Positions 7,549 through 24,700 of a DNA stretch of 64,000 nt are shown here, in pieces. Each line of letters starts with the position of its first letter. Position 1 is the first letter of the stretch. The stretch is from positions 2,176,001 through 2,240,000 of the forward strand of contig CAWGMA010000001.1 of assembly GCA_963823555.1 (NCBI GenBank). Direction: 5' to 3'. Below the pieces are notes generated by a model, which saw nothing but the letters and a program-made list of their open reading frames with translations, was not told where the DNA came from and searched no databases. A program made the translations under genes and the position numbers. Origin of the DNA: Candidatus Eiseniibacteriota bacterium (GTDB taxonomy: Bacteria; Eisenbacteria; RBG-16-71-46; CAVPCR01).

Positions 7549-8739
7549 ATGGCATGCTCGCCTGTTCCGTTCCACCCGCCCGCGCGCCTGCTCATGGGCC
7601 CCGGGCCCTCGAATCTCCACCCCCGGGTGGTTGAAGCCCTGGCCTCCCCCCTCCTCGGCCACATGGACCCGCTCGTCCTCGGCCTTCTTGCCGAGGTGCA
7701 GGAACTGCTGCGAGGTGTTTTCGGCACGCGGAATCCACTCACGCTCGCGGTGTCGGGCACCGGATCGGCTGGCATCGAGGCTTGCCTCACGGGGCTCATC
7801 GAACCGGGCGACCCGGTCGTCGTCGAGGTCCACGGCTTCTTCGGCGGACGGCTGGCCGACATGGCGGCCCGGGCCGGCGCTGACGTGACGCGGGTGGAGG
7901 CACCATGGGGCCGCGCCGCCGATCTCGAAGCGCTCCGCCTGGCCGTCAAGAAATCGCCGCCCAGACTCATCGCGGTCGTCCACGCCGAGACCTCGACCGG
8001 CGTGCTTCAGCCCCTGGCCGACGTGGCGGCGATCGCCCGGGAGGCTGGCTCCGCTCTCTTCGTCGACTGCGTCACCTCGCTTGGCGGCATGCCCATCGAG
8101 GCCGAGGAGCTCGGCCTCGCCGCCGCCGCCTCTTGCTCGCAGAAGTGCCTGGGCGCACCGCCAGGGCTCGCCCCCATCACGATGAGCCCCGAAGCCGCCG
8201 CTCGTCTTCGCGACCGCGCGCAACCGCTTCCGTTCTACCTCGATCTGTCGCTCATTGCCCGCTACTGGAACGGCGATCACGCCTACCACCACACGCTCCC
8301 GGTCAACCTGATCTACGCGCTCCACGAGGCGCTGCTCCTGGCCGCAGAGGAGGGCGAGAGCGAGCGCCGCCGCCGTCACGAACGGCACGGCGCCGCGCTG
8401 GCTGCCGGGCTCGAGGATCTCGGTCTCACCATCCTCGCCGCCCCCGGCGACCGCCTGCCGATGCTCACCGCGGTCCGCATACCGGATGGGGTCGATGACG
8501 CGGCCGTGCGGCGCCGGCTGCTCGAGGACTTCAACCTCGAGATCGGAGGCGGGCTCGGAGAGCTCAAGGGCCGGGTCTGGCGTATCGGACTCATGGGCGA
8601 GACCAGCCGCATGAATCACGTGATCCTGCTGCTGGCGGCACTCGGACGCCTGCTCGGGCGCAGCCCGGAGAAGGTCGGGCAGGCCATCGACGCCGCCGGC
8701 GCCCGGGCCGAGGCTACGACCACCAGCGGAGCGCGATGA
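7549..8739 (+). CDS. Alanine-glyoxylate/serine-pyruvate aminotransferase (PLP class V)
   Basis: 'LLMGPGPS', 'HAETSTGV', 'DCVTSLGG', 'SQKCLGAPPGL', 'YHHT', 'WRIGLMG'; AGGAGG RBS. Confidence 0.92.
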   Translation: MACSPVPFHPPARLLMGPGPSNLHPRVVEALASPLLGHMDPLVLGLLAEVQELLRGVFGTRNPLTLAVSGTGSAGIEACLTGLIEPGDPVVVEVHGFFGGRLADMAARAGADVTRVEAPWGRAADLEALRLAVKKSPPRLIAVVHAETSTGVLQPLADVAAIAREAGSALFVDCVTSLGGMPIEAEELGLAAAASCSQKCLGAPPGLAPITMSPEAAARLRDRAQPLPFYLDLSLIARYWNGDHAYHHTLPVNLIYALHEALLLAAEEGESERRRRHERHGAALAAGLEDLGLTILAAPGDRLPMLTAVRIPDGVDDAAVRRRLLEDFNLEIGGGLGELKGRVWRIGLMGETSRMNHVILLLAALGRLLGRSPEKVGQAIDAAGARAEATTTSGAR

Positions 8740-10229
8740 CCCTCGCCGCCATCCGGGAACGGCTCGCGGCCTGCTTGAGCGCTCTGGCGAGCGAGCACCA
8801 TGCCGCCGCCTCCGGGCGGCGCGATAAGCCGCGTTTCAGCGCGATCTTCGATCGCTACGCCGATCTCGCGCGTCGAGAGCCCTTCGACCTCGTGAGCGAG
8901 CACCTGTCGGCAGCCACCGACGTCGACGACGAACGCCGCTTGCGTCATCTGCGGGAGGGCCTCGCCGTTCACGGCGAGGAGTTCCGCCTCCATGCGCTGG
9001 AGCAGCAGCTCGCCGCCCTCAGGGCCTCCTACCGGGTCCAGGTCGAAGGCGAACCGGTGGCCTACCGCGACCTGGAGGCGCGGCTGCATGCCAGCACGGA
9101 CCGCGGCCAGCGGCGGGCCATCCAGCGCGCGATCAACGCGGCGCTCGCCGGTCCGTTCCGTTCCTTGCATGTTGAACGCGCCCGGAGCGCACAGGCCATG
9201 GCCCGGGAGCACGGGTCCGCGAGCTACAGCGATTTCTGGCGCGAGATGTCGGGGATCGATCTCGCAGCGCTGGCGCGGCAGTTCGACCTCTTCTCCGCAC
9301 GCACGAGCGCCCGGATGGTCTCTCTCGTGACGAACGCGCTCCCGGCGGCAGCGGGCATCCCGATCGGCGAGGCGGAGAGCCACGACGCGATCCCGCTCTT
9401 GCGTGGGGCGCGGTTCGATCACGCCTTTCCACGAGGAGGGGCGCTGGCGCTGGCGCGGAGCATCGTCGAAGGCGGGCTGGGTCTCGACCTCATGGCCGGC
9501 GGTCGCATCCACATCGACGTCGAGCCCCGGCGCGGAGCGGGGCCGCTCTTCTTCACGGCGGCGGTCAGGGTACCGGATCACGTCATTCTGTATGGTGCTC
9601 CGGCTGCAGGCATCGAATCCTGGACTGCCCTCTTCCACGAGCTGGGACACGCGCTCCACCTCGCTCACATCGACCCGGATCGGCCCTTCGAGGATCGTCA
9701 CCTCGGCGACAGCTCGGTGAGCGAGGGCTTTGCCGCGCTCTGGGCGGGCATCCTCCACGAGCCCGCATTCGCCCGTCGTCATCTCCGCGACGAGGCGGAG
9801 GCCTATCTCGAGCAGGCCGCTCTGCGCGAGCTCTGGGTCATGCGCCGCTACGCCGCCAAACTGGCCTATGAGCTCGAACTGTGGAGCCCACCGCATGGTA
9901 TGATCAGGGACGCTGCGGCCCGCTACCAGGCGCGGCTCGAGGCGGCGACCCCCCTACCCGTGGACCAAGAACGCTGCTGGGCCGACCTCGGCCTCCGCTT
10001 CCAACCGGCACGCTATCTCCGCGGCTGGCTCCTGGCGGCCGAGCTCCGAGCCCGGCTCCGCGCCGACTTCGGAGAGTGCTGGTTCGAGAGCCGGCGAGCC
10101 GGGAGGCACCTGCGTGAGATCTGGTCCTACGGACAGCAGTGGAACGCGGAGGATCTGGCGCGCCAGCTCGGGGCCGATGGACTCGTGATCGAGCCCCTGC
10201 TGGCTGAAGTCGAGATCCTCGCTGGCTGA
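8736..10229 (+). CDS. M3/M32-like zinc metallopeptidase
   Basis: HELGH zincin motif with downstream 'SEGFA' third ligand; ATGA overlap with the upstream gene. Confidence 0.75.
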   Translation: MTLAAIRERLAACLSALASEHHAAASGRRDKPRFSAIFDRYADLARREPFDLVSEHLSAATDVDDERRLRHLREGLAVHGEEFRLHALEQQLAALRASYRVQVEGEPVAYRDLEARLHASTDRGQRRAIQRAINAALAGPFRSLHVERARSAQAMAREHGSASYSDFWREMSGIDLAALARQFDLFSARTSARMVSLVTNALPAAAGIPIGEAESHDAIPLLRGARFDHAFPRGGALALARSIVEGGLGLDLMAGGRIHIDVEPRRGAGPLFFTAAVRVPDHVILYGAPAAGIESWTALFHELGHALHLAHIDPDRPFEDRHLGDSSVSEGFAALWAGILHEPAFARRHLRDEAEAYLEQAALRELWVMRRYAAKLAYELELWSPPHGMIRDAAARYQARLEAATPLPVDQERCWADLGLRFQPARYLRGWLLAAELRARLRADFGECWFESRRAGRHLREIWSYGQQWNAEDLARQLGADGLVIEPLLAEVEILAG

Positions 10230-10323
10230 ACCGTCTTGCGTCCGGCCCCGTAACTCAAGTGAATATTGACGCCTTGGCGCAGCAAATGACCCATCTGGAT
10301 CATCCTCGATGGAGGTTGCTACG

Positions 10324-10950
10324 ATGATGCAGTCCCGGATATCGACGCGGAAGCGGAACCCGCGCGGCGGCGGATGGCGGGCTCCGGCCGCAGCCGTTCT
10401 GGTCGCCGCGGCTCTCAGCCTTCTCGCCGCTCCCCCGTCGCCGCTGGTTGCGGCCGCGGCGGCCGAGCTCATCGACCTCGGCTCACCGATTCCGGTCGAA
10501 GTCCACTTCCTCTTCGATCCGCTCACCCTGGTCCGGATCCCGCCCGGAGCCTTCGGCTCCTACCCCGAGGGGACCCTGGCCGAGATCCAGGTCGACATGC
10601 CATCGTGCAACGGCCCCAATTGCATCAGCGGGCAAGGCTTGCTCGTGGCGTTCGACGGCCGCTACAGCGGGGACCTGGTCTCCCCCGTCACCATGCAGAT
10701 TCGCTACGACGAGGAGGCCGTGCGGCTCTTCGGGGTCACCGAGGAGGATCTCGTGATCGCCCGCTGGGACGAGCGCTTCCGGGACTGGCGGCCCTATGCC
10801 GGGCAGGAGATCGACCCCGAGAGAAACCTGATCTCCGCCCCCGAGACCGAGAACATCCGCGCCTTCGTGGCGGTCTTCGCGGGAAATCCCGCCCCGGTCG
10901 CGCCCCGGAGCTGGGGGGCGATCAAGGCTCTCTACGCGGTGGAGCCCTAG
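10324..10950 (+). CDS. Secreted protein with ZU5/S-layer-associated-like domain and C-terminal SWGxIK tail
   Basis: GGAGG at 10311-10315; signal peptide; 'VRIPPGAF...PVTMQIRY...EEDLVIARWDE'; ends PAPVAPRSWGAIKALYAVEP. Confidence 0.72.
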   Translation: MMQSRISTRKRNPRGGGWRAPAAAVLVAAALSLLAAPPSPLVAAAAAELIDLGSPIPVEVHFLFDPLTLVRIPPGAFGSYPEGTLAEIQVDMPSCNGPNCISGQGLLVAFDGRYSGDLVSPVTMQIRYDEEAVRLFGVTEEDLVIARWDERFRDWRPYAGQEIDPERNLISAPETENIRAFVAVFAGNPAPVAPRSWGAIKALYAVEP

Positions 10951-11228: not shown

Positions 11229-12914
11229 ATGGGTAGCATCGCCCACTTCCTCAGAGGCAAGGTCCTCTTGGTGACCGGAGCCACCGGCTTCCTGGCCGGG
11301 GGCCTCGTCGAGAAGATCCTGCGTGCCGCGCCGGGCGTCACCCGCATCTACCTTCTCATCCGCTCCAGCAAGCAAGGCACCGCCACCGAGCGGTTCGAGC
11401 GGGAGATCCTCAAGGCCAGTGTCTTTTCCCGTCTGCGCGAGGTCCATGGGGCCCACTTCGAGGAGTTCGCGCGCCAGAAGATGGTTCCCATCGCCGGGGA
11501 TCTGACTCACGACCGGATCGGACTCACAGACGACGACTACGCCCGCCTCACCCGTGAAGTCGACATCGTCATCAATAGCGCGGCGAGCGTCGTCTTCGAC
11601 GAGCAGCTCGATCAAGCACTCAACCTGAACACCCTGGGCCCAAGACGCCTCGTCGAGTTCGCCCGGAGCTGTCGCGACGCGATCTTGCTCCATGTCTCCA
11701 CGGCCTATGTCAACGGGCAGCGCATCGGACACGTCCCCGAACAGCTTCTGCCCGCCGATCGCTCGCTCGCGCAGATCATCGATCCCCGCTCCAAGGTCGA
11801 CTTCGACCTCGAGAGCGAGATCGAGTCGATCGCCGCCTTCGGCCGCAGGGCCTATGAAGATGCCATGCGTCCCGAGCTGGAGGCGGAATTCGAGCGGGTC
11901 GTGGAGCGCACGCATGCCGGACGGCCGCTCTCCGAGAGCAGACGCAAGCATCACATCGAAGCGCAACGCGGACGCTGGATCAAGAAGCGCCTTGTCGACG
12001 AGGGGATGCGACGAGCTCGCCGCCTCGGCTGGACGGACAGCTACACCTTCACCAAGGCGATGGGCGAGATGGTCGTGGCCAAGACTCGGGGGAACCTGCC
12101 CACCGCCATCGTCCGCCCCTCGATCATCGAGTCGAGCCTCGCCGAACCGGTGCCGGGCTGGCTCGACGGGCTCAAGGTGGCCGACCCGCTCATCATGCAT
12201 TACTCGAAGGGCCGTCTCCCGGACTTCCCGGCCGATCCCAACATCGTGCTCGATCTGATCCCGGTCGACATGGTGGCCAACGCGATCCTGGCTGCATTGC
12301 CCCGGATCCGCGAGAGCCGGGAGATCATGGTCTACCAGGTGGCCAGCGGCTCCGAGAACCCGTTGACGCTCGGTCAGATGTTCGATCTCATCTACGATCA
12401 CTTCCAGAAGCACCCGCAACAGAACCGCCAGGGCGAGGCGATCCGCGTGCAGCGCTGGACCTATCCCAGTCTCGAGCAGTTCCGGCGCTCATTCCGTCTC
12501 AAGTACGTGATGCCGGTGAGCGCGGCATCGTGGCTCATCACCCATTTCGCCGGGCTGCCCTGGACGCCCAGATTCAGGCAACGTGTCCTGCTCATGGCAG
12601 CCACTCTCGACCGGGTCCAGAGCTTGCTCCACATCTACAGCCCCTACATGCATCTCGATTTCCAGTTCGACACCAGCAACACGCGCCGGCTCTACGAGTC
12701 GCTCGATGCCGAGGACCAGGGGGCCTTCGACTTCGACGTGCGGGGTATCGACTGGCGTGAATACATCGAGGACATTCACCTGCCGACACTGATGCGCAAC
12801 TTCTCCAAGGAAGGAAACGGACAGCGGCCGGCCGGACCCCCGTCGACCAACGGCCCGCGGCAGTTGACCGGGCCATCGGCCGTGAGCAGCACCGGCGCCT
12901 CGCTGTCGACCTAG
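11229..12914 (+). CDS. Fatty acyl-CoA reductase (NAD_binding_4 plus Sterile C-terminal domain)
   Basis: 'LVTGATGFLA', 'NSAASVVFD', 'HVSTAYVNG', catalytic 'YTFTK', 'IVRPSIIES', 'IPVDMVANA', 'FDVRGIDWREYI'. Confidence 0.92.
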   Translation: MGSIAHFLRGKVLLVTGATGFLAGGLVEKILRAAPGVTRIYLLIRSSKQGTATERFEREILKASVFSRLREVHGAHFEEFARQKMVPIAGDLTHDRIGLTDDDYARLTREVDIVINSAASVVFDEQLDQALNLNTLGPRRLVEFARSCRDAILLHVSTAYVNGQRIGHVPEQLLPADRSLAQIIDPRSKVDFDLESEIESIAAFGRRAYEDAMRPELEAEFERVVERTHAGRPLSESRRKHHIEAQRGRWIKKRLVDEGMRRARRLGWTDSYTFTKAMGEMVVAKTRGNLPTAIVRPSIIESSLAEPVPGWLDGLKVADPLIMHYSKGRLPDFPADPNIVLDLIPVDMVANAILAALPRIRESREIMVYQVASGSENPLTLGQMFDLIYDHFQKHPQQNRQGEAIRVQRWTYPSLEQFRRSFRLKYVMPVSAASWLITHFAGLPWTPRFRQRVLLMAATLDRVQSLLHIYSPYMHLDFQFDTSNTRRLYESLDAEDQGAFDFDVRGIDWREYIEDIHLPTLMRNFSKEGNGQRPAGPPSTNGPRQLTGPSAVSSTGASLST

Positions 12915-12952
12915 CGGCCCCGAAACCCGCCGCATGGCGGCAGGGCGGTTCC

Positions 12953-14954
12953 ATGGAACGGAACGGCGACCAGTCAACACCCCCGCTGCACGTGGCTCTG
13001 CTCGGAGACCCGGCGCAGATGCTCGATGTCTTCGACGGCGCGGCCCGCGAGATCATCGAGGTCGGGAAGCCGGAGGGCTACTTCGATGGCTGGGCGCCGG
13101 ATGAATCTGAGCTGGCCACCGAGTCGGGACGAGACCGGCCCCATCAGCCTCGACGGGCTCTTGAAGCAGGCGCGCATCGTCCATGCGATCTACTCCGGGG
13201 TTCCGCGCCGCCGCGAGACCCGGCTCGCCGACGCGCACGCCCAGTTCGTCAAGGCCACCCCCGGCTATCATGCCGCCTCGCGCCTCTACCTCGAGATCGA
13301 GAAGCTCTATGTCGAACGCGGCGCCGGCACCGCCCTCGATTTCCTCCATCTCTATCAGGAGCTCTATCTCGATGCCCTGGCCCGAGCCGGCCTCTACACT
13401 CCCGACGAGGGTGAAGCAGCCCTCGAGCGCGCCCGGATCACGCGCGCACCGCTCGCTCACGCGCAGGCGAGTGCGGAGGCGCTGGCCGTCGCCGCCGCAG
13501 CCGGCGATCCCCGCCTCGATCAGACCTATGCGGCCGGCGATCCGGCACGTGAAGCGCCGCTGCGCGAGCACCTGCAACAGGTCGCCCAGGGTACGATCGA
13601 AGCCATCGCCGCCGGAGATCTGCTCGCCACGCGTTACAACACCTATACCAATCTGGCCTGGTTCGGATGCTCGGCCTGGAAGACCATCCTCGACGTGCAG
13701 ATCCTGCTCCGCCGGATCGCGGGTTCCCCCCTCGCCCGGCGCGCCGATGCCAAGGAGACCGCCGGACTGGAAGGCGACATCCGCCGCGCCCAGGGGATGT
13801 TGATCGAGTTCTTCGCCGCTCATCGCGAGGATCCCGCGCGCATCAAGCCGGCGAGCTACTGGTACGGTCATCGTTACAGCTACTTGACACGCGACATGAT
13901 CGATGCCTGCCGTGCCCTCGTTGCCCGTGCCAACCGTCTGGTGCGCGAGCTGGTACGCATGGCAGTGCCGGGAGGCGAGGAGATCGCCGAGATCGCCCTT
14001 CCACCGCTCCTCGCCGGGCGCCTGAGCGGACGCTATCTCGAGTATCCCCACGTCGGACCCCAGCGCCGGTTCTCGACCTGGCAGCGCGTCACTCGCCTCG
14101 GGCGCTGGATCGGGCCGTCGCTGGCCAACGGCCGCAGGAAGCGGGCCCTGGGCAGCTCTCCCCTCTCCCCGCCCGAACGCCGGCGCATCATCTGGCGCGA
14201 GAACGTGCGCTGGGCCGAAACCACACTCCGCACTTTCGGCATCGAGGTTCGGGTCACCATCGATCCCGAGTTCCACTCGATCGCGCGCGCCCTGGATCTG
14301 GGCAACAGGAAGCGAAAGATCCTCTTCCTGCCCACACACCAGGGCCTGCTTGATCATCCCATCATGTACCGGGCGCTGGCCTCGCCCGAACTCGTGGCGG
14401 CCATGGGCTGGGCCGAACCGGCGCCCTGCGCCATGTTCGCGCGAGCAGGCCTCGGCATGGCCGGGCTACGCATCGGCAAGTGGTCGACCACCATGTTCGG
14501 GGTCTCGGCCCGGGAGTTCGATCACCTGCTCGAGACCGTCGATGGATATGTGATCGCCGACCGCACCGGGGACGCGCGCAACGCGATCCAGCGCTTCGCC
14601 AAGGTGCTGGAGGATCGTCCCGGAGTCCTCTATCCGGCGCTCACCACCGCCGCCTTCGACATCCAGTCGCCACCTCTTCAGCACATTCTCTTCGCTCTCC
14701 TACCCCAGGATGTCGTCATCATCCCGGCCGCCATCCGCGGCAGCCACGGGCTCTGGCCCAAGTCTCCGAAGGGAAATCTCCACCTGAATCCCGGGCTTGC
14801 CGAGGTGGTGTTCGCGCCTCCCATGCTCGGCGAGACGACGCTCCTGCCCCGCCGGCGGTCGCTTCGCATCCAGATCGAGGCCGCCGCGCTCTTCCAGGCC
14901 GTGCACTTGCACTACCTTCTGAATCCCGAACCAGCGGCTGCGCAAGCCGGCTAG
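12953..14954 (+). CDS. Large protein with C-terminal PlsC-type glycerolipid acyltransferase domain; apparent +1 frameshift at GGG 13126-13128 (alternative in-frame ATG 13101)
   Basis: Coding-like codon usage from ATG 12953 switches frame at gagtcgggacgag. HxxxxD motif 'PTHQGLLD', 'IIPAAIRGS', 'VVFAPP'. Confidence 0.7.
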
Positions 14955-14958
14955 ACGG

Positions 14959-15672
14959 ATGGAGACCTCACATTCGAAGCTTCTCCCGCCCGCCGCATTC
15001 TTCGATGTGGACGGCACCCTCATGTCCACGAACATCACGATGTACTACGTCCATGTCGCCACCCGTGGCTACTCACCGCTGCGCCGCCTCCTGTGGACCC
15101 TCGGTGTGGGCCCCAAGGCCCTCTACTACCTGCTCCTCGACAAGATGAGCCGCGGCGCCTTCAACCGCGTCTTCTATCGCAACTACCGCGGCCTCGATGC
15201 GGCCCACGTGCGGTCTCTCGCCGACGAGATCTTTGCCGCCGTCATGCGTCCGCGACTCTATCCCGGCGCCCTCGAGGCCATCGCCGAGCACAGGGCGCGC
15301 GGCGAACGGGTGGTGCTGGTCACTGGATCGGTCGATTTCCTGATGTGGCCCCTTGCCCGATTCCTGGACATCGATCCCAGCGATGTGATCGCCGTCGAGC
15401 TCGGCGAAGAGAACGGACGGTTCACCGGTGAGCTCACCGGGCCGCCGCTGGCCGCGGAGGAGAAGGCCCGTGCCGCGCGCGAGCATGCCGCGCGGCACGG
15501 CATCGACCTTGCCGCGTCCTCCGCCTATGGGGACTCGGGAGCGGACATCCCGCTCCTCGAGGCCGTCGGGCACGCGGTCGTCGTCAATCCGACACAGAAG
15601 CTCGAGCAGCTCGCCCGCGAGCGCGACTGGCGCGTTGTGACCTGGTCGCCGGCAGCGGGTGACAGGACATGA
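14959..15672 (+). CDS. HAD subfamily IB phosphatase (SerB-like)
   Basis: 'FFDVDGTL', 'LVTGS', 'EEKA', 'AYGDSGADIPLLEAVGHAVVVNP'. Confidence 0.92.
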   Translation: METSHSKLLPPAAFFDVDGTLMSTNITMYYVHVATRGYSPLRRLLWTLGVGPKALYYLLLDKMSRGAFNRVFYRNYRGLDAAHVRSLADEIFAAVMRPRLYPGALEAIAEHRARGERVVLVTGSVDFLMWPLARFLDIDPSDVIAVELGEENGRFTGELTGPPLAAEEKARAAREHAARHGIDLAASSAYGDSGADIPLLEAVGHAVVVNPTQKLEQLARERDWRVVTWSPAAGDRT

Positions 15673-17738
15673 TGAGGCGCGAACGGCGCGGCGTCCGGAT
15701 CGCCCTGGCCGTCGCCGGTGTGCTCTTCGCCCTCGTCATCACCTTCGCCACCACGACCCACCGCCTCCGCTATCTCTCCCGCGTGAATGCGCTCGGGGCC
15801 GGGAGTCTGCCCGCATCGAGCTTGACCTTGCCGGTACGTCCCATCCTGCCCGCTCCCTACCTCGACGGCTATGCCTGGGTCACTCTCGCCCGCCACATGG
15901 CGGAGTCGGGGCGCACGCGCATCCACTGGACGGACGATGACAATGCTCCGGACGGACGCCGCGTCGACTGGAGCTCGCTCTACGCGTGGTGGCTCCTCGC
16001 GCTCGGCGCCGCAACCGGGCAAGGGGACCTGCTGGCGGTCGCGCGGGCCGCGCCGCTGGCGGGACCGGTGCTTCTCGCCGTCCTCTTGCCGCTCCTGGCC
16101 TGGTTCGCCTACCGGGGGTCGGGTGCGGCGGGCGCGCTCGTCATCGCGCTCTCCCTCGCCGGCGCCTTTCCGCTCGCCGAGAGCTTCTTCGCCGGCAACG
16201 TCGATCATCACGGGCTCGTGGTCGCTGCCGTCATGGCGACGGGGCTCGCCCTCGCCGCCGCCGGCGGCGGCTGGATCGGCGGCGGAGACGCGACCCGGCG
16301 CACGGCCCGCCGCTGGATGATCGTCTCCGGAGTGGCCGCGGCGGTCGGGCTCTGGGTGAGCGCGGTCACGCTCGCCGTGGTGCTCGCCGGCATCGGGCTC
16401 GGTGCCCTGGCGAGCGCCCTTCTCGCGCGCTCGCCGCAAGCCGCACTCGAAACATCGATCACACCGTGGCCAGAGGCCTGGCGGGTATGGGGCTGGTCGG
16501 GGGCGATGGCGAGTCTCGCCTTCTATCTCATCGAGTACTTCCCGGGCGACCTCGGCATGCATCTCGAGGTCAACCATCCGCTCTACGCTCTCGCCTTCGC
16601 CGGCGGCGGCGAACTCCTGACGGGCTGGTGGCGCTGGGTCCGCGACAGGCGGCTCACCGGCGGCGATCTCTTTCGGACTTCAGCCGGGGCCATCGCGGTC
16701 TCGTTGTTGCCTGTGGCCATCATCGTTGCCGGGCCTTCCTGGTACGCGCTCCGCGATCCCTTTCTCTGGAGCCTGCATCAAGACATCGAGGAGTTCCGTC
16801 CCCTCATCACGCTCTTCGCAGAGGCCAGGACGGGAGTGCTGTTCGCCGCGCTGAGCCCGCTCCCGCTCGTCCTCTTCGCGGCGGTGCTCTTGTTCCGGGG
16901 CGGGCATCCCGGCGCCCATGGCGATCAGGCAGCGAGCGACAAGCTCGACCCGCCGGCCGGCGATCCGGTACGAGCGCGGGCCCAGCTCACCCTCGGCCTC
17001 GGCCCGGCTCTCCTTCTCGGCGTCCTCGCCCTGTGGCAACTCCGATGGGTGGGGATCTGGCTCGCAGCACTCGCCGTCCTCGGCTCGGTGGTGGCGGGCG
17101 AGCTCGCGCCCTGGTCGGGTCGCCGCCGCGCCCCGACCAGAGCCCGGACCCGCGCGGCGATCGCTCTCGCCGTGCCCCTGGTCCTCCTCGTCGCCGGGGC
17201 CTTCGATATCGTATCGAGCGCGAGCGCTCAGGCTCGGGGGCGCGCCTTCGTTCCCGACGATATCGTCTCCGCCCTGCTCCGCGACATGGCGCTCGTGATC
17301 GCCCCAGCGCCGGATGCCCAGGGAGGAGATACGGACCACGGCCGGCCCATCGTGCTCGCCAGCCCGGATGCCACGGTCGCCCTGACCTACTTCGCCGATC
17401 TGCGCGGAATCGGCACCCTGTACTGGGAGAACCTGCCCGGTCTTCGTTCGAGCGCCGAGATGTTCGCGACCTCGAGCGCCGATAGCGCGCGCGCCTTGCT
17501 CGCCTCGCGACAGGTCACGCATGTCGTCCTCCTCTCGGAACGCAGCTTCATCGGGACCTACTACCGCCTGATCCACGGCCGCCTCGATGTCGATGCGGCG
17601 CGCAGCACCCTGTTCGGCCGGATCCTGTTCGCCGGCGAGGCGCCGCCCCCCTGGCTTCGCCCCATCCCCTACCGGCTCCCCATCGATCGTCTCGGCGACC
17701 GGCCGCTCCGCGCCGTTCTCCTCGAGGTCACGCCGTGA
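15669..17738 (+). CDS. Polytopic membrane GT-C glycosyltransferase, STT3/AglB-like
   Basis: Many TM segments; 'DGYAW', 'DNAPDGRRVDW', 'GNVDHH'; soluble C-terminal domain with 'TLYWEN' and no WWDYG; ATGA-coupled to the HAD gene. Confidence 0.6.
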   Translation: MMRRERRGVRIALAVAGVLFALVITFATTTHRLRYLSRVNALGAGSLPASSLTLPVRPILPAPYLDGYAWVTLARHMAESGRTRIHWTDDDNAPDGRRVDWSSLYAWWLLALGAATGQGDLLAVARAAPLAGPVLLAVLLPLLAWFAYRGSGAAGALVIALSLAGAFPLAESFFAGNVDHHGLVVAAVMATGLALAAAGGGWIGGGDATRRTARRWMIVSGVAAAVGLWVSAVTLAVVLAGIGLGALASALLARSPQAALETSITPWPEAWRVWGWSGAMASLAFYLIEYFPGDLGMHLEVNHPLYALAFAGGGELLTGWWRWVRDRRLTGGDLFRTSAGAIAVSLLPVAIIVAGPSWYALRDPFLWSLHQDIEEFRPLITLFAEARTGVLFAALSPLPLVLFAAVLLFRGGHPGAHGDQAASDKLDPPAGDPVRARAQLTLGLGPALLLGVLALWQLRWVGIWLAALAVLGSVVAGELAPWSGRRRAPTRARTRAAIALAVPLVLLVAGAFDIVSSASAQARGRAFVPDDIVSALLRDMALVIAPAPDAQGGDTDHGRPIVLASPDATVALTYFADLRGIGTLYWENLPGLRSSAEMFATSSADSARALLASRQVTHVVLLSERSFIGTYYRLIHGRLDVDAARSTLFGRILFAGEAPPPWLRPIPYRLPIDRLGDRPLRAVLLEVTP

Positions 17739-17805
17739 TACGGTGGCCGGTAAGGTCCTTCCCGCCCCCGCTCTCCGCGCTCCCCTTAAGCTCCGCGCGG
17801 CGTTG

Positions 17806-17814
17806 TGCTAGCGT
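17806..17814 (+). promoter_or_regulatory. Extended -10 promoter, probable leaderless transcript
   Basis: TGc-TAGCGT ending 6 nt before ATG 17821, with no SD sequence. Confidence 0.5.
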
Positions 17815-17820
17815 GCGCCC

Positions 17821-19044
17821 ATGAAGGCGATCCAGTACCGGCGAAGCGTGCCGCGCTACCTCCTCGTGCGAGCGATCGCCGGGCACTGGTCCCCGATCGC
17901 CACCGGCCCGCTCGCCATGATCGGCCTGCGCGAGCTCGAGGAGCCTCGTCTCATCACCGATTCGTGGGTGCGCATCCGCACGCGCCTCTGCGGCATCTGC
18001 GGCTCGGATCTGGCCACGATCCTCGCGCAAGGAAGCCCCTACTTCTCGGCCCTCACGTCGTTCCCATTCGTCCTCGGGCACGAGATCGTGGGCACCATCG
18101 ACGAGTTGGGCCCCGCCGTCACCGGACTCGCGCCGGGCGATCGCGTCACCATCGAGCCGGTCCTCGGCTGCACCGCGCGCGGCATCGCCGAGACCTGCCC
18201 GCAATGCCAGGCCGGAAACTTCGGAAACTGCGAGTACACGACACGCGGCTCGCTCGCTCCCGGCATCCAGACCGGCTTCTGTCGTGACACGGGCGGCGGT
18301 TTCAGCCCGCTCTTTCTCGCTCACTCGAGCCAGGTGCACCGCGTGCCCGACGCGCTCGACGACGATGCCGCGGTCCTGATCGAACCCTTCAGCTGCGCGC
18401 TACACGCGGCACTCAAGCCGGAGCTGTCCGCGGACGCCACGGCGCTCGTGCTCGGCGCGGGAACGATGGGCCTGCTGACGATCGCCGCACTCCGCGCCGC
18501 TGGCCGCCGCGCCCGGCTGATCGCCGTCGCCAAGTACCGCCATCAGGCCGAGCTCGCCGGCGAGCTCGGTGCCGATCTCGTGATCCGGAGCGGCCGCGAT
18601 CTCTACCGCGAGGTCTGCCGCGCCACCGGGGCCGAGATCCACCGGCCCGCGCTCGGGAAACCGGTCCTCTCGGGAGGCGCCGACGTCACCTTCGATTGCA
18701 TCGGGAACTCGGGCACGATCGACGATGCGCTGCGCTTCACGCGGGCTCATGGCACGGTCATCCTCGTCGGCATGCCCGCGGTGCCACGCCAGGTCGATTG
18801 GACCTCGATCTGGTACAAGGAGCTCGCGGTCGTCGGTGCCTACACGCAAGGCACCGAGACACTCGACGGCCGGCGCATGCGTACGTTCCCGCTGGCCATG
18901 GAGCTCATGCGGGCGCGGGGCGCCGTGCTGGCGCCGCTCGTGAGCGCGCGTTTCCCGCTCCAGGACTTTCGCCAGGCCTTCGCCCACGCGGCGGCGAGCG
19001 GGCGCCTCGGTGCCGTCAAGACCGTCTTCGCATTTCCCGGATAG
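17821..19044 (+). CDS. Zinc-dependent medium-chain alcohol dehydrogenase
   Basis: 'GICGSD', 'LGHE', structural Zn 'C..CPQC..GNC', 'VLGAGTMGLL'. Confidence 0.92.
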   Translation: MKAIQYRRSVPRYLLVRAIAGHWSPIATGPLAMIGLRELEEPRLITDSWVRIRTRLCGICGSDLATILAQGSPYFSALTSFPFVLGHEIVGTIDELGPAVTGLAPGDRVTIEPVLGCTARGIAETCPQCQAGNFGNCEYTTRGSLAPGIQTGFCRDTGGGFSPLFLAHSSQVHRVPDALDDDAAVLIEPFSCALHAALKPELSADATALVLGAGTMGLLTIAALRAAGRRARLIAVAKYRHQAELAGELGADLVIRSGRDLYREVCRATGAEIHRPALGKPVLSGGADVTFDCIGNSGTIDDALRFTRAHGTVILVGMPAVPRQVDWTSIWYKELAVVGAYTQGTETLDGRRMRTFPLAMELMRARGAVLAPLVSARFPLQDFRQAFAHAAASGRLGAVKTVFAFPG

Positions 19045-19092
19045 CCGGGCGCAGAGATCCGCGATCAGTCACCGGGAGGAAGAGGAGGAGAG

Positions 19093-20640
19093 ATGAAGTA
19101 CCTGACCTACTCGGGAAACAGCTTGGTCGAGGCGGAGCTCCCGGAGAGCGCCCACGTGTACTTCCCGCCGCCGCCGATTCCCGGGATCAAGCGCCCCGAC
19201 CTGCCGGCAGCGCTCCGCCGCACGGTCGAGAACCCGCTCGGCATGCCGCCGCTCCGCGAGCTGGTGGGCCCCACGGCCAAGGTCCTCATCCTCTTCGATG
19301 ACAACTGCCAGCCGTTCCCACCCATGCAACGGCCCGACATCCGCGAGACCCTGATCACAGAACTCCTCGCGATCCTGGGCGAGCACGGTGTCCGGCGGGA
19401 GAACGTCACGCTCATGTGCGCCGTCGCGCTCCATCGCAAGATGAAAGAGAGCGAGCTCACGCACATGCTCGGCGAGCGGCTGATGCGGGAGTTCCACCCC
19501 ACCCGCTGCCGGAACTTCGACGCCGAGGATCCCGACGCGATCGTCTACCTCGGCGACACCGAGAAGGGAGAGCCGGTCGAAACCGACCGCGCCGTCATCG
19601 ACTCCGACCTCGTCATCTATGTGGACACGGTCCAGATCCCGCTCAACGGCGGCCACAAGTCGGTGGCGGTCGGGCTCGGCACCTATCGCTCGATCGCGAG
19701 CCACCACGCCCCGCAGATGACCCTGGAGAGCCCCCATGTCATGCAACCCGACGGCTCGCACATGCATGAGCTCATCGAGCGACTGAGCCACGTGATCCTG
19801 AAACACGCGCGGATCATGGTGATCGAGGCGGCGATGAACGGGGCCACCTATCCGCCGGCGCTCGCCCATCTCGGCAAACCGCGCTCGCAGATGTCCGATC
19901 TCGAGCGGGCGCTCAACACGGCAACCCCCGTCGCCATGGGGCTCCTCCCCGAGCCGGCGCGCTGCGCCATTCTCCGCGGCATGCGCTCGGTGTACGAGCC
20001 GATCGAGATCCACGCCGGCGCGATCGACGCCGTGCACCCCCTGACCCTGGCCGCGCTCGACCGCCAGCTCCGGGTCCAGATGCCGCAGCAGTACGACACG
20101 CTGGTGTTCGGCCTCCCGGATCTGAGCCCCTACTCGGTCGGCGCGCGGGTGAACCCGGTGCTCGTGGTGAGCGATGTCCTCGGCTACGTCTTCAACTGGT
20201 TCTACAACAAGCCGTACGTCAAGCCCGGCGGCGCGGTCATCATCCTGAACCCGGTCTTCGAGATCTTCCATCCCGAGTATCACGTCGCCTATCGCCGCTT
20301 CTACGACGACGTGCTACTCGCGACCAAGGATCCGCTCGAGATGCAAGCGACGTTCCAGGAGAGGTTCGCCAAGGATCCGGTGCTCGTGGATTGCTACCGG
20401 AACCGCTTCGCCCATCACGGCTTCCATCCCTTCACGGTGTGGTACTGGGCGACCTATCCGCTCCGGTACCTGTCCAAGGTGATCCTGGTGGGGCCGCCGG
20501 ATGACCGGCAGGCGAAGCGGCTCGGGGTGTCGTGGGCGAAGAGCCTCGCCGATGCGCTGGCGATGGCGCGCGAGGCGACCGGTGGGAACGACGTCGTGGG
20601 GCTCACCATTCCGCCGTTCCTCTATGCGGAGGTGGCGTGA
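19093..20640 (+). CDS. Lactate racemase (LarA/DUF2088) domain protein
   Basis: 'ENPLGMPPLRELV', 'ILFDD', 'ALHRKM', 'NFDAED', 'LGDTEKGEPVE', 'GGHKS', 'ASHH'; strong GAGGAGG RBS. Confidence 0.82.
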   Translation: MKYLTYSGNSLVEAELPESAHVYFPPPPIPGIKRPDLPAALRRTVENPLGMPPLRELVGPTAKVLILFDDNCQPFPPMQRPDIRETLITELLAILGEHGVRRENVTLMCAVALHRKMKESELTHMLGERLMREFHPTRCRNFDAEDPDAIVYLGDTEKGEPVETDRAVIDSDLVIYVDTVQIPLNGGHKSVAVGLGTYRSIASHHAPQMTLESPHVMQPDGSHMHELIERLSHVILKHARIMVIEAAMNGATYPPALAHLGKPRSQMSDLERALNTATPVAMGLLPEPARCAILRGMRSVYEPIEIHAGAIDAVHPLTLAALDRQLRVQMPQQYDTLVFGLPDLSPYSVGARVNPVLVVSDVLGYVFNWFYNKPYVKPGGAVIILNPVFEIFHPEYHVAYRRFYDDVLLATKDPLEMQATFQERFAKDPVLVDCYRNRFAHHGFHPFTVWYWATYPLRYLSKVILVGPPDDRQAKRLGVSWAKSLADALAMAREATGGNDVVGLTIPPFLYAEVA

Positions 20641-21548
20641 GCACGAGCGGGGCCATGAACGCCGGGGGCGAGACCCTGGTCATCGCCAACCCGGTTTCGG
20701 GAGGCGGTCGCGGGCACACGCTCGGCGACCAGGCGGCGGCCCTCATGCGGGAACGCGGGATCGCCGCGCGGCTCGAGTTCACGACCGGCCCCGGCGAGGC
20801 GGAGCGGATCGCGCGCCAGGCGCTCGCCGCCGGGGGCAGGCGTTTCGCCGTCGTGGGCGGGGACGGCACGGTGCATGAGGTGGCGAACGCGCTCGCCGGA
20901 TCGGAGGCGGCGCTCGGCCTCCTCCCCTGCGGGCGCGGCAACGATCTGGCGCGGGTCCTCGGGGTGCCGGGCGAGGTCGAGCGCGCGGTTGGGATCGTCG
21001 TTTCTGGGCGTCAGCGGCGGATCGATCTCGGGCGCGTCGGCGGGCGGCATTTCGCCACCGTCGCCTCGATGGGGTTCGACTCCGAAGCAGCCGAGCTCGT
21101 GCACTCGGGGGCCGCTCCCCTGGGCGGAACGGCAGGCTACATCTATGCGGTGCTCCGCACCCTCGCGAGCTACAAGAGCCCGACGGTGACGATCCGCGGC
21201 GACTTCGGCGAGTTCACGGGCGAGGTGCTCCTCGCCGCGACCGGCAACACCTCAACCTACGGCGCCGGCATGAAGATCGCGCCGCGCGCAGTCTGCGATG
21301 ATGGATTGCTCGATGTATGCATCGTGCGGGCGCTCCACCCGCTCACCGTGCTCCGCTACTTCCCGCGCATCTTCGCCGGGACGCACGAGGATCTGCCGTT
21401 CGTGGCGATGCACCGCACGCGCCGGGTCGCGATCGAGACCTCGCGCCCGATCTGGATCTACGCCGATGGGGAGCCGATCTGCCGCACCCCAGCGGCGATC
21501 GAGGTCGTGGCAGGGGCCCTCACGGTGCTGTGTCCGGCGGGGGGGTAG
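20637..21548 (+). CDS. Diacylglycerol/lipid kinase (YegS/DgkB family)
   Basis: 'ANPVSG', 'GGDGTVHEV', 'PCGRGND', 'GFDS', 'YGAGM', 'DDGLLD', 'ADGE'; GTGA overlap with the upstream stop. Confidence 0.92.
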   Translation: MSTSGAMNAGGETLVIANPVSGGGRGHTLGDQAAALMRERGIAARLEFTTGPGEAERIARQALAAGGRRFAVVGGDGTVHEVANALAGSEAALGLLPCGRGNDLARVLGVPGEVERAVGIVVSGRQRRIDLGRVGGRHFATVASMGFDSEAAELVHSGAAPLGGTAGYIYAVLRTLASYKSPTVTIRGDFGEFTGEVLLAATGNTSTYGAGMKIAPRAVCDDGLLDVCIVRALHPLTVLRYFPRIFAGTHEDLPFVAMHRTRRVAIETSRPIWIYADGEPICRTPAAIEVVAGALTVLCPAGG

Positions 21549-21655: not shown

Positions 21656-21742
21656 GGTCGCGGGCGGGATGCCGCGACCGGCTGTCCCGAGCCGCCATCC
21701 AACATGGCAACGGCCTGGGCGGCTCCCCCGGAGGAATGCACG

Positions 21743-24700
21743 TTGGCCGCGAATCGCAGGATTGGGCTCCTGGGTGGTCTCCGCGTCATCGACGGTGATC
21801 GAGAGATCACGCACTTCGTCACGCAGAAGACCGCTTCTCTCCTCGGCTTTCTGGCCTATCATCGCGAGCAAGCGCATCTCCGCGACACCGTGATCGAGAT
21901 GCTCTGGCCCTGGGCCAGTCCCGGAGCCGGCCGCCAGAGCCTGAGCACCGCGCTATCCGCCCTCCGCCACCAGCTCGAGCCGATCGGTTTCTCCCCCGGT
22001 TCCGTCCTCCTCACGGATCGCAACACCGTGCGCTTGAACCCTGAGACGACCGTCACCGATGTCCAGGAGTTCGAGACAGCACTGGCAAATGCTGACAAGG
22101 CGGGACCATCCACCAGGAGGCGACAGCTCGAGCGAGCCATCACCCTCTATCGCGGCGACCTGCTCGCCGGGCTCTATGAAACCTGGATTCCACCCGAGGC
22201 GGAACGTCTTGCAGAGCGGTTCCAGGCGGCAGCCTCGGAACTGGCCCGGATCCTCGCGGCTCGCGGCGAGAAGGAGCTCGCCGCCACTCACCTGGAGCGG
22301 GCCATCGAAACAGCGCCGCAGCGCGAGGAACTCTACCGGCAGCTGATGTGCCTCTATTCGGCACTCGGCGATCCTCATCTGGCGCTCGATCTCTACGCGG
22401 AACTGGAAGCCGGCCTGCGTCAGGGTCGGAGGCAGACCCCGGCGGCGGCGACCCAGGAGCTGGCGCAGGAGCTCAAGCATAGCGTCGTGGCTCGCCCCAT
22501 GGCGACGGCGGCACGCAGGCGAATCATCGATCGCAGGGCGCTGCGTGGAGCTCCCGCCACACTGCCCACCGGGACTGTGACCTTCATCGCCATTCTCGCC
22601 GCCAGCGGGTCCGAGCCCGAGCTCCGCGACCTTGGGTTCGATGAAGAGATGCGACGCCATGGCGGCGTGATGGTCGAACCCGAATCCAACAACGCCGCAT
22701 TGCATGTGATGGCGTTCTCGCATGCCGGCGACGCGCTGAACTGCGTCGCGGCGTGCCAGCTGAGAGCGGCACGGTCTCCGAGCAGGGACGCGTCGCGGCC
22801 GGCCATGGCCGTTCACACCTGCCAAGCGGACGTCGGAACTGACGGGCGCTATCCACGCGGCACCCTCGAACATGTGTTGAGCCTCCTGGCCGTGAGCCAT
22901 CCCGGGCAGATCTTGTACACGGAGACCGCCGCGGCCCTCGTCCGCCATGGATTGAGCGGTGGATTCGGGATGCGCAAACTCGGCCGCTATCGCCTACCGG
23001 GCGGCGCGGCTCCTGAACCCCTCTGTCAGATCGATTACCCGGGCGGTCCCGAGAGCTTTCCCCCGCTCAGAGCCGAACCCGGCCCTGCCAACCATCTGCC
23101 CGTCCGCATGACACGCTTCTTCGGACGCGAGGGCGAGATACTCCAGATCGAGGCCATGCTCTCGAGTGGGGCCCGGCTCATAACCCTCGTCGGCGCGCCG
23201 GGATGCGGAAAGACACGCCTCGCACTCGAGATGGCGAATCGGATGGTCGAGGCGTTCGCTGGTCGTGTGTGGTTCGTGCCACTGACCGACCTGCCCGAGG
23301 GTAGTGGCATCCACGACCGGACTCTCGACTCGCTCCGGATCACGCGTTCTCCTCGGATCCCACCCCTCGGTCGAATCGAGTCGGAACTCGCCGATCACCG
23401 GGCGCTCATCGTGTTCGACAACTTCGAACACCTGCTTGGAGCAGCGGGTGAACTGAGCACTCTGCTCGAACATCTACCGCACCTCCATTGCCTCGTCACC
23501 TCGCGACGGCGGCTGAACCTCCCGGAAGAGGAGTGCTTCGGGGTCTATCCCCTGCCGACGCCGATGGACTCCTCCATGAAGACCCTGCTCGCCAATGAGA
23601 GCATCCGGTTGTTCATCGATCGGGCCCAGGCCGTCGCGCCCGAGTTCGATTTGACTGCCGACAACTCCGGGGCTGTGGCGGAGATCTGCGCGCGTCTGGA
23701 TGGCATCCCGCTGGCCGTCGAGCTCGCTGCTGGCCGCCTCAACGTACTGGCGCCGGATCAGATCCTGGAACACCTGGGGGGGCCAGGAACCCTCATGTCC
23801 AGCCGCATTCGAGACGATGACACGCGGCATCGCACCCTGCGGGCAGCCGTGGACTGGAGTTACTCCCTGCTCGATCCCGAGCTCCAGACGTTCTTCGCGC
23901 AGCTCTCCGTGTTCGCGGGGGGGTGGACCACCGAGGCTGCCGAGGCGGTGTGCGATCAGCCGCTGGCCGAGGACCGCCTCTCCGAGCTCTCCGCCTGGTC
24001 GCTGGTCCTCTTCAGGGAAGCGAGCGAAATCGGAGCACAAGCGGGAACCGGTTCCGAGCCTCGCTTCGAGATGTACGCGAGCCTCCGGGAGTTCGCGCGC
24101 GAGAAGCTGCATGCGCTCGACGCTGACCTGGAGCGCCAGGCAGAGGAGCGGCATGGACGGTGGTATGCGCAGCATGGCACCGACGCGGCCATCACGGCGC
24201 TCGACCTGCACGGTGGAGTGGAGCGCCGCAAGAAGCTGGGAAGGGAGCTGGAGAACCTGGTCGTTGCCTGCCAGCGAGCCAGCGAGCGTGGCGATGGCGA
24301 GATCGCCGGGGATGCCTATTGTGGCGCGGCGGCGGTGCTCCTCTTCCAGGGGCCCTTCCACAGGGCCATCTCCCTCGGCGAGCGGGTGGGGGCACTGCCG
24401 CTCGATCAGCCGCACCGGATCCGGGTACTCAGGTATCTGGGGATCGCGGAACTTCGTTCCGGACAACACGATCAGGCAAGGGGCCACTTCGAGGCCGGGC
24501 TTGCGCTGGCGCGAGAGACGGGTCAGCGGCGCGATGAGGGCATGCTCCTCGCATGCCTGTACAGCCTTTGCCGGGAGCAGAACCGATTTCAAGAAGCACG
24601 CTCGCTCATCGAGGGCGCCCTGGCCATCGCCCGGGAGGTCGGAGATCGGATCAATGAGGGCATCTTCCTCGGAAACCTGGGTTCTCTGGACTTCACTGTG

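Follow-up and report, generated by a model that had tools for sequence, protein, structure and literature searches.

Genes at the locus

The window, i.e. the whole stretch of 64,000 nucleotides analysed here, contains seven co-oriented genes separated by gaps of -4 to 82 nt (Table 1), all of them within the span that a preliminary description had given for the cluster. Because loci L001 and L007 keep the same gene order, the genes have not come together by chance. FAR–acyltransferase–(HAD–Zn-dehydrogenase–LarA-like)–DAG-kinase-like forms the core, and the kinase most likely starts at the GTG at 20637.

Table 1. Genes of the cluster, with window coordinates and the matches on which each name is based.
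Feature	Coordinates	Strand	Matches
FAR, 561 aa, stand-alone fatty acyl-CoA/ACP reductase	11229..12914	+	PF07993 E 1e-73, PF03015
PlsC-fold acyltransferase, large N-terminal helical domain outside known families	12953..14954	+	predicted model match PlsC 5kym
HAD-IB phosphatase, ElbB equivalent	14959..15672	+	PF12710, TIGR01490
STT3/Dpy19-like GT-C membrane protein, accessory	15669..17738	+	TIGR04154 E 8.5e-5, below cut-off
Zn-dependent medium-chain dehydrogenase (MDR)	17821..19044	+	PF08240, PF00107
ElbC-like LarA-superfamily protein	19093..20640	+	PF09861; NF052592
YegS/DAG-kinase-like lipid kinase	20637..21548	+	PF00781, PF19279, TIGR00147 above cut-off

The FAR carries a Rossmann motif (TGATGFLA) and YTFTK at 272, and shares 48% identity with the FAR domain in the ElbD of genome G238; as judged from this likeness, it is the equivalent of the N-terminal domain of ElbD. 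No AMP-binding or PP-binding gene was found within the operon, and the nearest acyl-CoA synthetase gene is on another contig. The acyltransferase had no Pfam and no NCBIfam match in profile searches. However, its AlphaFold model (pLDDT 90.5) matched the PlsC of T. maritima (5kym) in a Foldseek search (E 8e-5, TM 0.64 by target), and structure comparison also showed a resemblance to GPAT1. The HX4D motif corresponds to H438-D443 (numbering of ORF 13026); among 82 acyltransferase sequences H438 is invariant and D443 is conserved in at least 90%. The reading frame is broken by one extra base near 13104-13107, which is missing in two independent contigs, one of them otherwise identical over 373 nt; the frameshift is thus probably an assembly error. 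In most of 14 loci with AGPS the acyltransferase lies directly upstream of AGPS, and since AGPS needs acyl-DHAP the enzyme is a probable (GNPAT-like) source of acyl-DHAP, a preference for DHAP that is deduced only from this pairing.

The phosphatase scored 153 bits against TIGR01490 (cut-off 98) and is accordingly an ElbB-type HAD-IB protein. The residues C60, H87 and E88 of the MDR, together with its four structural cysteines, are invariant in 13 sequences. The GT-C gene, predicted to encode about 11 TM-like segments, is the least clear member. An STT3-type oligosaccharyltransferase was considered and rejected, given the score against TIGR04154 (21 bits, cut-off 450) and the absence from the protein of WWD, the acceptor motif of these enzymes. 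Its Atlas neighbours (score 0.99) are in unnamed and STT3/Dpy19 clusters, so the assignment of the preliminary description to the GT-C superfamily is likely right, even though the identification is weaker than for the other genes. Its place in the pathway did not hold up: the gene is present in two of six metagenome or genome loci with the LarA cassette (L001 and L007) and was not found in L008, L010, L055 or L069, nor in the regions examined in G037, G215, G238, G244, G246 and G356-G360. It is a genus-level extra, an insertion limited to the window and its closest relatives.

The ElbC-like protein

The elbABCDE genes of M. xanthus are MXAN_1531-1527 (Lorenzen 2014, via PMC9131029 and PMC13012113). 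In the accessible parts of these two sources, the ether lipids of M. xanthus are described as barely lowered by disruption of AGPS and strongly lowered by loss of elbD, neither fatty alcohol nor acyltransferase activity was detected with the purified ElbD protein, and no elbC mutant is reported. The statement of the preliminary description that HAD and DUF2088 genes neighbour elbD was correct, as elbB encodes a HAD protein and MXAN_1529 (elbC) is a member of LarAH group 15.

The LarA-like protein of the window matched NF052592, the model of LarAH14/15/16, over its full length (505 bits, E 1e-151), below the cut-off of 740 that is passed by its relatives in G238 and G359 (770 and 783 bits); other LarA models gave at most 97 bits. 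An NGGHKS motif is common to the protein and MXAN_1529 when the two are compared by eye. By the model, the grouping of MXAN_1529 and this motif, the protein qualifies as an ElbC homologue. Among 62 LarA-like sequences D69, H114, K189, H205, Y347 and H445 are invariant. The best solved relatives are the single-His proteins LarA-Sp (9q2u, E 1.6e-39) and LarA-Bw (9q3j, E 5e-34; PMC12611868), and the cofactor-linking lysine, the nickel-ligand histidine and the first catalytic histidine of these relatives align with K189, H205 and H114, respectively, the first two at the Lys/His positions of the holo relative. LarA-Sp and LarA-Bw have an asparagine for the second histidine, whereas the window family lacks residues at this point and has an insertion of about 40 residues; moreover, they are found in a context of sugar metabolism and the window family among lipid genes. 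As the His174 segment is deleted, the pair of catalytic histidines (His108, His174) is incomplete, and a 2-hydroxyacid racemase of the LarA type was rejected on this ground. The absence of His174 has been reported for LarAH groups 14 and 15, and seven racemase/epimerase assays of the Frankia LarAH14 showed no activity.

The larB, larC and larE genes were found above cut-off in all three genomes searched, G000 (the genome of the window), G036 and G037. In the phylum of G206 nearly all genomes (158 of 168) have larC, which is therefore no sign of cofactor dependence, and Table S1 of PMC7583248 lists no neighbouring larBCE for LarAH groups 14-16. The conserved residues suggest that the ElbC-like protein probably binds the nickel-pincer cofactor.

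Exchange with AGPS

The preliminary description stated that a FAD-dependent AGPS is missing, and this was borne out: G000 has no AGPS orthologue (best match 21% over 309 aa), and none was found at E 1e-50 in the 206 genomes of its phylum with a query that matched 125 of the 168 genomes of the G206 phylum. The cluster itself occurs in 3 of the 206. Among 83 acyltransferase loci, 14 have AGPS, 6 have HAD-MDR-LarA and none has both; the HAD is present in all six LarA loci and in none of the 14 AGPS loci, where the AGPS is a true one (match to 4bby, E 3.5e-157). In the 168 genomes we counted the acyltransferase in 132, FAR in 131, AGPS in 125, the ElbC-like protein in 8 and the MDR in 8, the last two in the same genomes, although the alignment used for the MDR search contained six of these eight. 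The independent HMM NF052592 gave full-length matches (at least 452 bits) only in the same eight genomes, the next score being 98.5 bits. Of the acyltransferase-positive genomes 123 have AGPS only, 7 LarA only, none both and 2 neither, but as the genomes are kin they represent about three independent contrasts (at least three forced changes on a quick acyltransferase tree) and not 132. In the two genomes with neither, the acyltransferase lies at the end of a contig, which in G269 shows the beginning of AGPS. The expected co-occurrence of the genes elsewhere was seen in further loci and genomes with the LarA cassette. M. xanthus carries both routes, AGPS and elb, so the exclusion is not universal.

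The exchange can be followed at the nucleotide level. The sister contigs L055 and L056 share 93.9% identity over a stretch of 5.1 kb (FAR–acyltransferase) up to the acyltransferase stop, after which one continues with HAD-MDR-LarA and the other with AGPS-SDR, a low-GC block (0.47 vs 0.69), and then homology resumes. FAR and acyltransferase are 91-93% identical between LarA-type and AGPS-type sister genomes. G358 has lost HAD-MDR-LarA on a contiguous contig, has acquired AGPS-SDR at a site unoccupied in G356 and retains the kinase, which follows both the LarA and the AGPS-SDR cassettes and is thus common to the two operon types. In G245 the HAD is a leftover behind AGPS-SDR, so the minimal exchanged unit is MDR plus LarA, and in G238 a true multidomain ElbD precedes the same cassette (ElbD-HAD-MDR-LarA-kinase). 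The preliminary description did not assign the ether bond to any one gene; these swaps single out the LarA-like protein, together with the MDR, as the candidate for the ether-forming step of the elb pathway, and the cassette probably replaces AGPS and SDR functionally. The MDR is proposed to be an alkyl-DHAP/alkyl-dihydroxyacetone reductase; its earlier designation as the keto-reductase gains support, since the swaps also trade it for the SDR behind AGPS.

Relation to known systems and proposed pathway

The operon shares with elb the FAR activity, a PlsC-superfamily acyltransferase, a HAD-IB protein (ElbB), an NAD(P)-dependent oxidoreductase, a LarA-superfamily protein without His174 (ElbC, group 15) and the lack of AGPS in the operon. 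However, it has no multidomain ElbD (FAR-ACS-ACP-acyltransferase): FAR stands alone, acyl-CoA synthetase and ACP are missing from the operon, and the acyltransferase comes from another family, one without a Pfam model, for which BLAST against the ElbD acyltransferase domain gave nothing significant (E 0.37). A Zn-MDR takes the place of the SDR-type NAD-dependent epimerase/dehydratase ElbA/ElbE, and the lipid kinase and the GT-C gene are additional. The AGPS route is represented by eukaryotic FAR/GNPAT/AGPS/alkyl-DHAP reductase, by MXAN_1676-1674 of M. xanthus and by the FAR-AT-AGPS-SDR-kinase operons found here, which arrange the orthologues of FAR, acyltransferase and kinase as the window does but have FAD-dependent AGPS and SDR in place of its HAD, MDR and LarA-like genes. 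Ger/PlsAR, the anaerobic ester-to-ether reduction, also gives bacterial alkyl ethers without AGPS, but its proteins are unrelated, of Fe-S activase type, and lie outside the operon. Ger/PlsA-like proteins, a possible ether source, are encoded in G036, G215 and G238 as well as elsewhere in G000. COG1063 proteins, mislabelled in the published table of LarAH neighbourhoods, are presumably Zn-dehydrogenases. In LarAH group 14 of Actinobacteria (Frankia, Rubrobacter, Acidimicrobium, Kribbella) the neighbours are PlsC (88%), HAD (88%), COG1063 (88%) and thioester reductase (50%; PMC7583248 Table S1, Dataset S2). This group has another acyltransferase family, the window protein stays below the NF052592 cut-off, and the group is given there as of unknown function, with no ether-lipid link in the portions accessible to us. 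The suggestion that the architecture is distinct to one uncultured lineage is not supported, as the combination had already been tabulated, uninterpreted, in Actinobacteria, and G238 has a full ElbD before the same cassette.

We consider it quite probable that the operon encodes an AGPS-independent alkyl-ether lipid pathway, as kinship to elb and cassette exchange with AGPS support the ether-lipid reading of the preliminary description. With fair probability, it would be a split-ElbD variant of elb in which the MDR and the LarA-like protein, along with the HAD, stand in for AGPS and SDR. FAR, clear as to family, would provide fatty alcohol, and the acyltransferase, by fold a PlsC, would acylate DHAP, the acceptor suggested by the pairing with AGPS. 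The ElbC-like protein would then swap the acyl group for fatty alcohol with no net redox change, the nickel-pincer cofactor serving as electron sink as FAD does in AGPS; cofactor-binding residues and genomic equivalence are the observations behind this step. The Zn-dehydrogenase would reduce the C2 ketone. Least certain is the last step, in which the HAD would remove and the kinase restore a phosphate; the exchange would most likely take place on the dephosphorylated substrate, with the kinase then making 1-O-alkyl-glycerol-3-phosphate. The chemistry of the cassette cannot equal the AGPS route, since the latter needs no HAD. That the LarA-like protein itself catalyses bond formation (acyl/alkyl exchange) is, in our estimate, an evenly balanced proposition. 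Slightly more tentatively, ElbC-like LarA proteins may be nickel-pincer-dependent alkyl-ether synthases, a convergent, flavin-free counterpart of AGPS, which would form the C-O ether bond by trapping the carbanion of acyl-dihydroxyacetone(phosphate) on their cofactor, and so provide the missing elb step across Myxococcota, Actinobacteria, Acidobacteriota, Planctomycetota and candidate phyla.

A different chemistry has to be weighed, in which a glycerol hydroxyl set free by the HAD reacts with the FAR aldehyde to give a hemiacetal, which MDR and LarA-like protein together reduce to the ether, the latter as a hydride shuttle or auxiliary subunit and not as an AGPS mimic. MDR and LarA are indeed never separated in the eight genomes, the HAD is tied to LarA groups 14-16 (88-100%, PMC7583248 Table S1) and absent from AGPS loci, purified ElbD gave no detected fatty alcohol, and intermolecular hydride transfer is described as possible for nickel-pincer enzymes in the part of PMC13524815 available. 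Nevertheless, we find this unlikely, because the AGPS of sister genomes is served by the same FAR and acyltransferase and requires fatty alcohol and acyl-DHAP (PMC3509576, as far as accessible), and because an SDR-type epimerase takes the place of the MDR in the myxobacterial group 15, which fits an exchangeable ketoreductase better than a partner that is obligate (PMC7583248 in part).

LarA-family enzymes are racemases or epimerases, and the Ger/PlsA-like gene of G000 could cover ether synthesis. Wax esters can be made by a FAR plus an acyltransferase. The cassette might therefore make a non-ether lipid (a wax ester, or a glycerolipid whose backbone is epimerised) from the same precursors, AGPS being excluded only via competition for fatty alcohol and the same membrane role. 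This is a little less probable again: the homologous cassette is in the elb operon, in the available accounts genetically tied to ether lipids, one catalytic histidine required for racemisation is absent, the predicted acyltransferase fold is PlsC and not wax synthase, and G037, G244, G246, G356, G357, G359 and G360 have neither a PF09989 match nor AGPS. We give very little weight to the cassette degrading or salvaging ether lipids or fatty alcohols, or being a mobile passenger that excludes AGPS by accident. The independent contrasts are few, dehydrogenase, phosphatase and kinase could serve salvage, and the rarity in its own phylum suggests lateral gain, but two separate lineages show reciprocal gain and loss at precise junctions, almost all acyltransferase-positive genomes have one module and not the other, and the cassette is tightly coupled to a biosynthetic FAR.

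The question of the elb ether bond has stood since 2014, as no domain of ElbD resembles AGPS and M. xanthus ethers persist after AGPS disruption. The displacement evidence for the MDR and LarA pair versus AGPS and SDR is new here: natural swaps name a two-gene ether-forming candidate, sister operons differing in that cassette only. If true, this would be a new type of group-transfer reaction for the nickel-pincer cofactor, undescribed in the literature as far as consulted. ElbD alone would then supply precursors and AGPS or ElbC would close the bond, which would change the genome-based prediction of ether-lipid producers and bear on where the bacterial ether-lipid biomarkers of soils, sediments and sponges are taken to come from.

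The operon, its acyltransferase and its host

The seven co-oriented genes claimed in the preliminary description are all present and fill the operon, with intergenic gaps of -4 to 82 nt. FAR, HAD-IB, Zn-MDR, LarA-N and YegS/DAGK were each confirmed by profile matches to the window ORFs, while the product of the fourth gene resembles STT3-type GT-C proteins weakly, according to profile search and comparison with Atlas. The latter had been proposed as a member of the pathway, but it is missing from most LarA-type loci and was rejected as a core step. A promoter and terminator scan of the operon gave nothing above chance, and no RNA data set was listed among the sequencing runs that contain it. 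The WGAIK-containing tail of two nearby, probably secreted proteins is possibly a lineage-specific sorting signal (see table).

Features of the window and of related loci (L, retrieved loci; G000:C1, contig of the window's own genome)
Sequence	Coordinates	Strand	Genome position	Observation
Window	6425-7390	-		Probable secreted protein, short WGAIK-containing C-terminal tail
Window	8736-10229			497-aa ORF, no Pfam/NCBIfam match, with a counterpart (42% conserved) in the same place in L001; HELGH motif, zinc-peptidase-like
Window	10309-10950	+		Probable secreted protein, tail similar to that of 6425-7390
Window	11229-21548	+		Operon: FAR, acyltransferase, HAD-IB, GT-C, Zn-MDR, LarA-like, YegS/DAG-kinase-like
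Window	12953-14954			Acyltransferase; Pfam-less PlsC-fold family, N-terminal helical bundle of ~390 residues
Window	21704-25669 and 26142-29756			Two AfsR/SARP-like regulators in tandem (BTAD-ATPase-TPR), immediately downstream of the kinase end of the operon
L055	12907-13338			Small ORF between HAD and MDR, the slot of GT-C in the window; presumably a DUF559-like endonuclease
L067	3259-9582			Complete eukaryote-like ether route, FAR-acyltransferase-AGPS-SDR-kinase (also L009, L023, L050)
L092	682-8301		G359:C333	Second ElbC-like gene (783 bits, above the NF052592 cut-off) adjoining a gene of the cytidylyltransferase family and an NRPS-like protein (AMP-binding, ACP, luciferase-like, methyltransferase, reductase domains); neither HAD nor MDR detected at this locus
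L108	6184-7947		G302:C428	Second AGPS copy, GC 0.36, in addition to the native AGPS elsewhere in the genome
L109	5405-8605		G000:C1 ~1697400-1702600	Ger/PlsA-like activase gene, 2x PF01869 + PF09989
L110	4493-5827		G000:C1 ~1600500-1601800	Second, ordinary two-domain LarA homologue
L111			G000:C1 ~2160200	Second Ger/PlsA-like copy, apparently frameshifted, ~16 kb upstream of window

The acyltransferase encoded by the second gene had no profile match in Pfam or NCBIfam. A structure model built from 82 homologues (pLDDT 90.5) matches PlsC (5kym, E 8e-5) as well as further structures of the GPAT family, and the histidine of the HX4D motif is invariant in the homologue alignment; for the N-terminal helical bundle nothing matching was found in PDB or Atlas. 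The first 45-50 residues are encoded in another frame (start 12953). This frameshift is probably an assembly error, since one base at 13104-13107 is absent from contigs of two other runs, both of low depth, one of which is otherwise identical to the window over 373 nt. Genuine pseudogenisation is unlikely, as the extra base is missing in these independent contigs and the genes of relatives are intact.

The nearest named record, titled Ca. Eisenbacteria (L001), has the same gene order and an acyltransferase 80% identical to that of the window, and its match coordinates coincide with those in the same-genus genome G036. Among the 206 genomes of the window's phylum, the acyltransferase and the LarA-like gene are each restricted to 3 genomes of a single family, and the FAD-dependent ether-forming enzyme AGPS occurs in 0/206, in agreement with the absence originally claimed. 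The acyltransferase family is near-core elsewhere, i.e. in 132 of the 168 genomes of the phylum around genome G206, taken to be Latescibacterota because of the names on protein matches, though in the retrieved loci it is mostly unlinked to FAR or AGPS. The LarA-like subfamily is wider than the acyltransferase (488 matches among 7997 scored candidates, including names from Acidobacteriota, Planctomycetota and Gemmatimonadota); a plasmid search gave no match to the LarA-like gene.

Two exchangeable cassettes

We retrieved 86 acyltransferase loci and tallied 83 (L003 among them duplicates L001), leaving out a reverse-strand fragment and two loci that belong to the genome of the window itself. True AGPS (structure match 4bby, E 3.5e-157) is present in 14 loci and the HAD-MDR-LarA cassette in six, the two are never found together (0/83), and 60 acyltransferases have none of these cassette neighbours in the retrieved DNA. 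AGPS is followed by an SDR in 13 of the 14 loci (the contig ends in the 14th); the kinase gene is present in eight of the 14 and HAD in none. The expectation that the window's genes co-occur elsewhere thus held for the cassette, and the complete gene order recurs in L001. The eukaryote-like ether route is near-core in the G206 phylum (125/168 genomes); we take its SDR to resemble the mammalian alkyl-DHAP reductase DHRS7B.

The same exclusion is seen at the level of whole genomes. FAR was found in 131 of the 168 genomes, AGPS in 125 and an ElbC-like LarA in 8. The MDR subfamily occurs in the same 8, six of which were contained in the MDR alignment, so that its absence from the other 160 is the informative part. 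Scores of at least 452 bits with NF052592, the curated model for LarAH groups 14-16, are likewise confined to these 8 genomes; the next matches, at 98.5 bits and below, are nearly all N-terminal and to ordinary LarAs. Of the 132 genomes with the acyltransferase, AGPS alone is present in 123, LarA alone in 7, both in none and neither in 2; the acyltransferase of the last two borders a contig end, and in G269 the first 95 codons of AGPS are visible. The nominal Fisher p of 3e-10 overstates the exclusion, given the relatedness of the genomes. A quick, preliminary tree of the acyltransferase (76 rows, each with at least 550 aligned residues) forces at least three changes of the LarA label, and the independent contrasts number about three. 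Against exclusion counts M. xanthus, which is described as holding both routes (PMC9131029, PMC13012113).

Direct swaps are seen in closely related loci. In the sister contigs L055 and L056 the 5134 nt up to the acyltransferase stop agree at 93.9% (identity of FAR 93%, of the acyltransferase 91%), past which L055 has HAD-MDR-LarA and L056 has AGPS-SDR, and homology returns at the same methyltransferase-like gene (88.8%, 797 nt). The AGPS block of L056 is foreign to its surroundings, since its GC is 0.47 against a background of 0.69 and its AGPS shares no more than 45-47% identity with the AGPS usual in the phylum. Genome G245 has the same foreign AGPS-SDR with HAD retained behind the block, which narrows the exchanged unit to MDR and LarA; as L055 and L056 fall together within G245 in the acyltransferase tree, more than one order of events would fit this clade. 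HAD-MDR-LarA(-kinase) is a free-standing cassette in G356, G357, G359 and G360. In their sister G358 a single contig carries the kinase and the two flanks, with HAD-MDR-LarA missing, and its AGPS-SDR sits between flanks that in G356 lie close together without AGPS-SDR. The second AGPS copy of G302 indicates that AGPS genes move laterally in the G206 phylum.

The LarA-like protein as a candidate ether synthase

AGPS swaps acyl for alkyl on acyl-DHAP with zero net redox change, and the reaction passes through a carbanion adduct on the oxidised flavin (PMC3509576). The window LarA-like protein retains the cofactor-linking K189, the Ni ligand H205 and the catalytic H114, all invariant in 62 LarA-like sequences, and the second catalytic His is absent. 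Its score of 505 bits is below the NF052592 family cut-off of 740. The closest relatives of known structure are LarAs with a single His; one of these was shown to bind the cofactor, which can form a covalent adduct with sulfite (PMC12611868). The genes larB, larC and larE are encoded in G000, the window's own genome, and in G036 and G037; larC, present in 158/168 genomes of the G206 phylum, is too widespread for its distribution to bear on cofactor dependence, and the ordinary LarA homologue of G000 could alone explain larBCE there.

From families, motifs, gene order, exclusion and swaps, which are direct observations, we infer every catalytic assignment. Because the Lys, the Ni ligand and one His are kept, the relatives are single-His LarAs, the cofactor forms adducts and larBCE are present, we propose that the LarA-like protein may stand in for AGPS, the pincer ring serving as the electrophile, while MDR would take the SDR role. 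The linkage of HAD to LarA and not to AGPS suggests that acyl/alkyl exchange could take place on a dephosphorylated substrate, to which the kinase would then restore the phosphate. An ordinary racemase was rejected on the missing His and the lipid context. A Ger/PlsA-like gene, which could supply ethers by another route, occurs in G000, where it would confound native lipid profiling, and in G036, G215 and G238; it was not found in G037, G244, G246, G356, G357, G359 and G360.

Relation to elb and the published LarAH groups

The elb operon spans elbA (MXAN_1531) to elbE (MXAN_1527) (PMC13012113), therefore elbC is MXAN_1529. This protein was placed in LarAH group 15, without His174 (Desguin 2020, PMC7583248 Dataset S2). 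The neighbours of group 15 are the elb genes, and those of group 14 are PlsC, HAD, COG1063 and thioester reductase (Table S1 therein). Group 14 is labelled "unknown function" in that paper, Frankia LarAH14 was reported inactive in seven assays, and ElbC is called a protein of unknown function in a review (PMC9131029). According to the same review, ether lipids are barely lowered by AGPS disruption but strongly by loss of elbD, and an elbB insertion is only partially rescued by elbD; in our reading, this last result would agree with ElbB or ElbC being required. The available part of a sponge preprint (10.64898/2026.06.23.733905) reports elbD and agps together in Latescibacterota as well as split elbD variants, and holds nothing on ElbC as a LarA. 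No link between ElbC and LarA, or between LarA and ether lipids, was found in the openly licensed literature, and for hosts of group 14 (Rubrobacter, Gaiella) nothing usable on ether lipids turned up there.

The proposal of a distinct architecture stands only in part, since the gene neighbourhood had already been published in table form and the elb pathway itself is established. The two systems are bridged by G238, with ElbD(FAR-ACS-ACP-AT)-HAD-MDR-LarA-kinase. In many genomes with AGPS, FAR lies in a frame of ~1400 aa and ElbC is lacking; this points to ElbD as the source of precursors for whichever ether-forming module is present. The operon itself is real, and it most likely encodes an AGPS-independent alkyl-ether lipid pathway. 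MDR and LarA probably replace AGPS and SDR in it, and the chances that the LarA-like protein is the ether synthase itself appear even.
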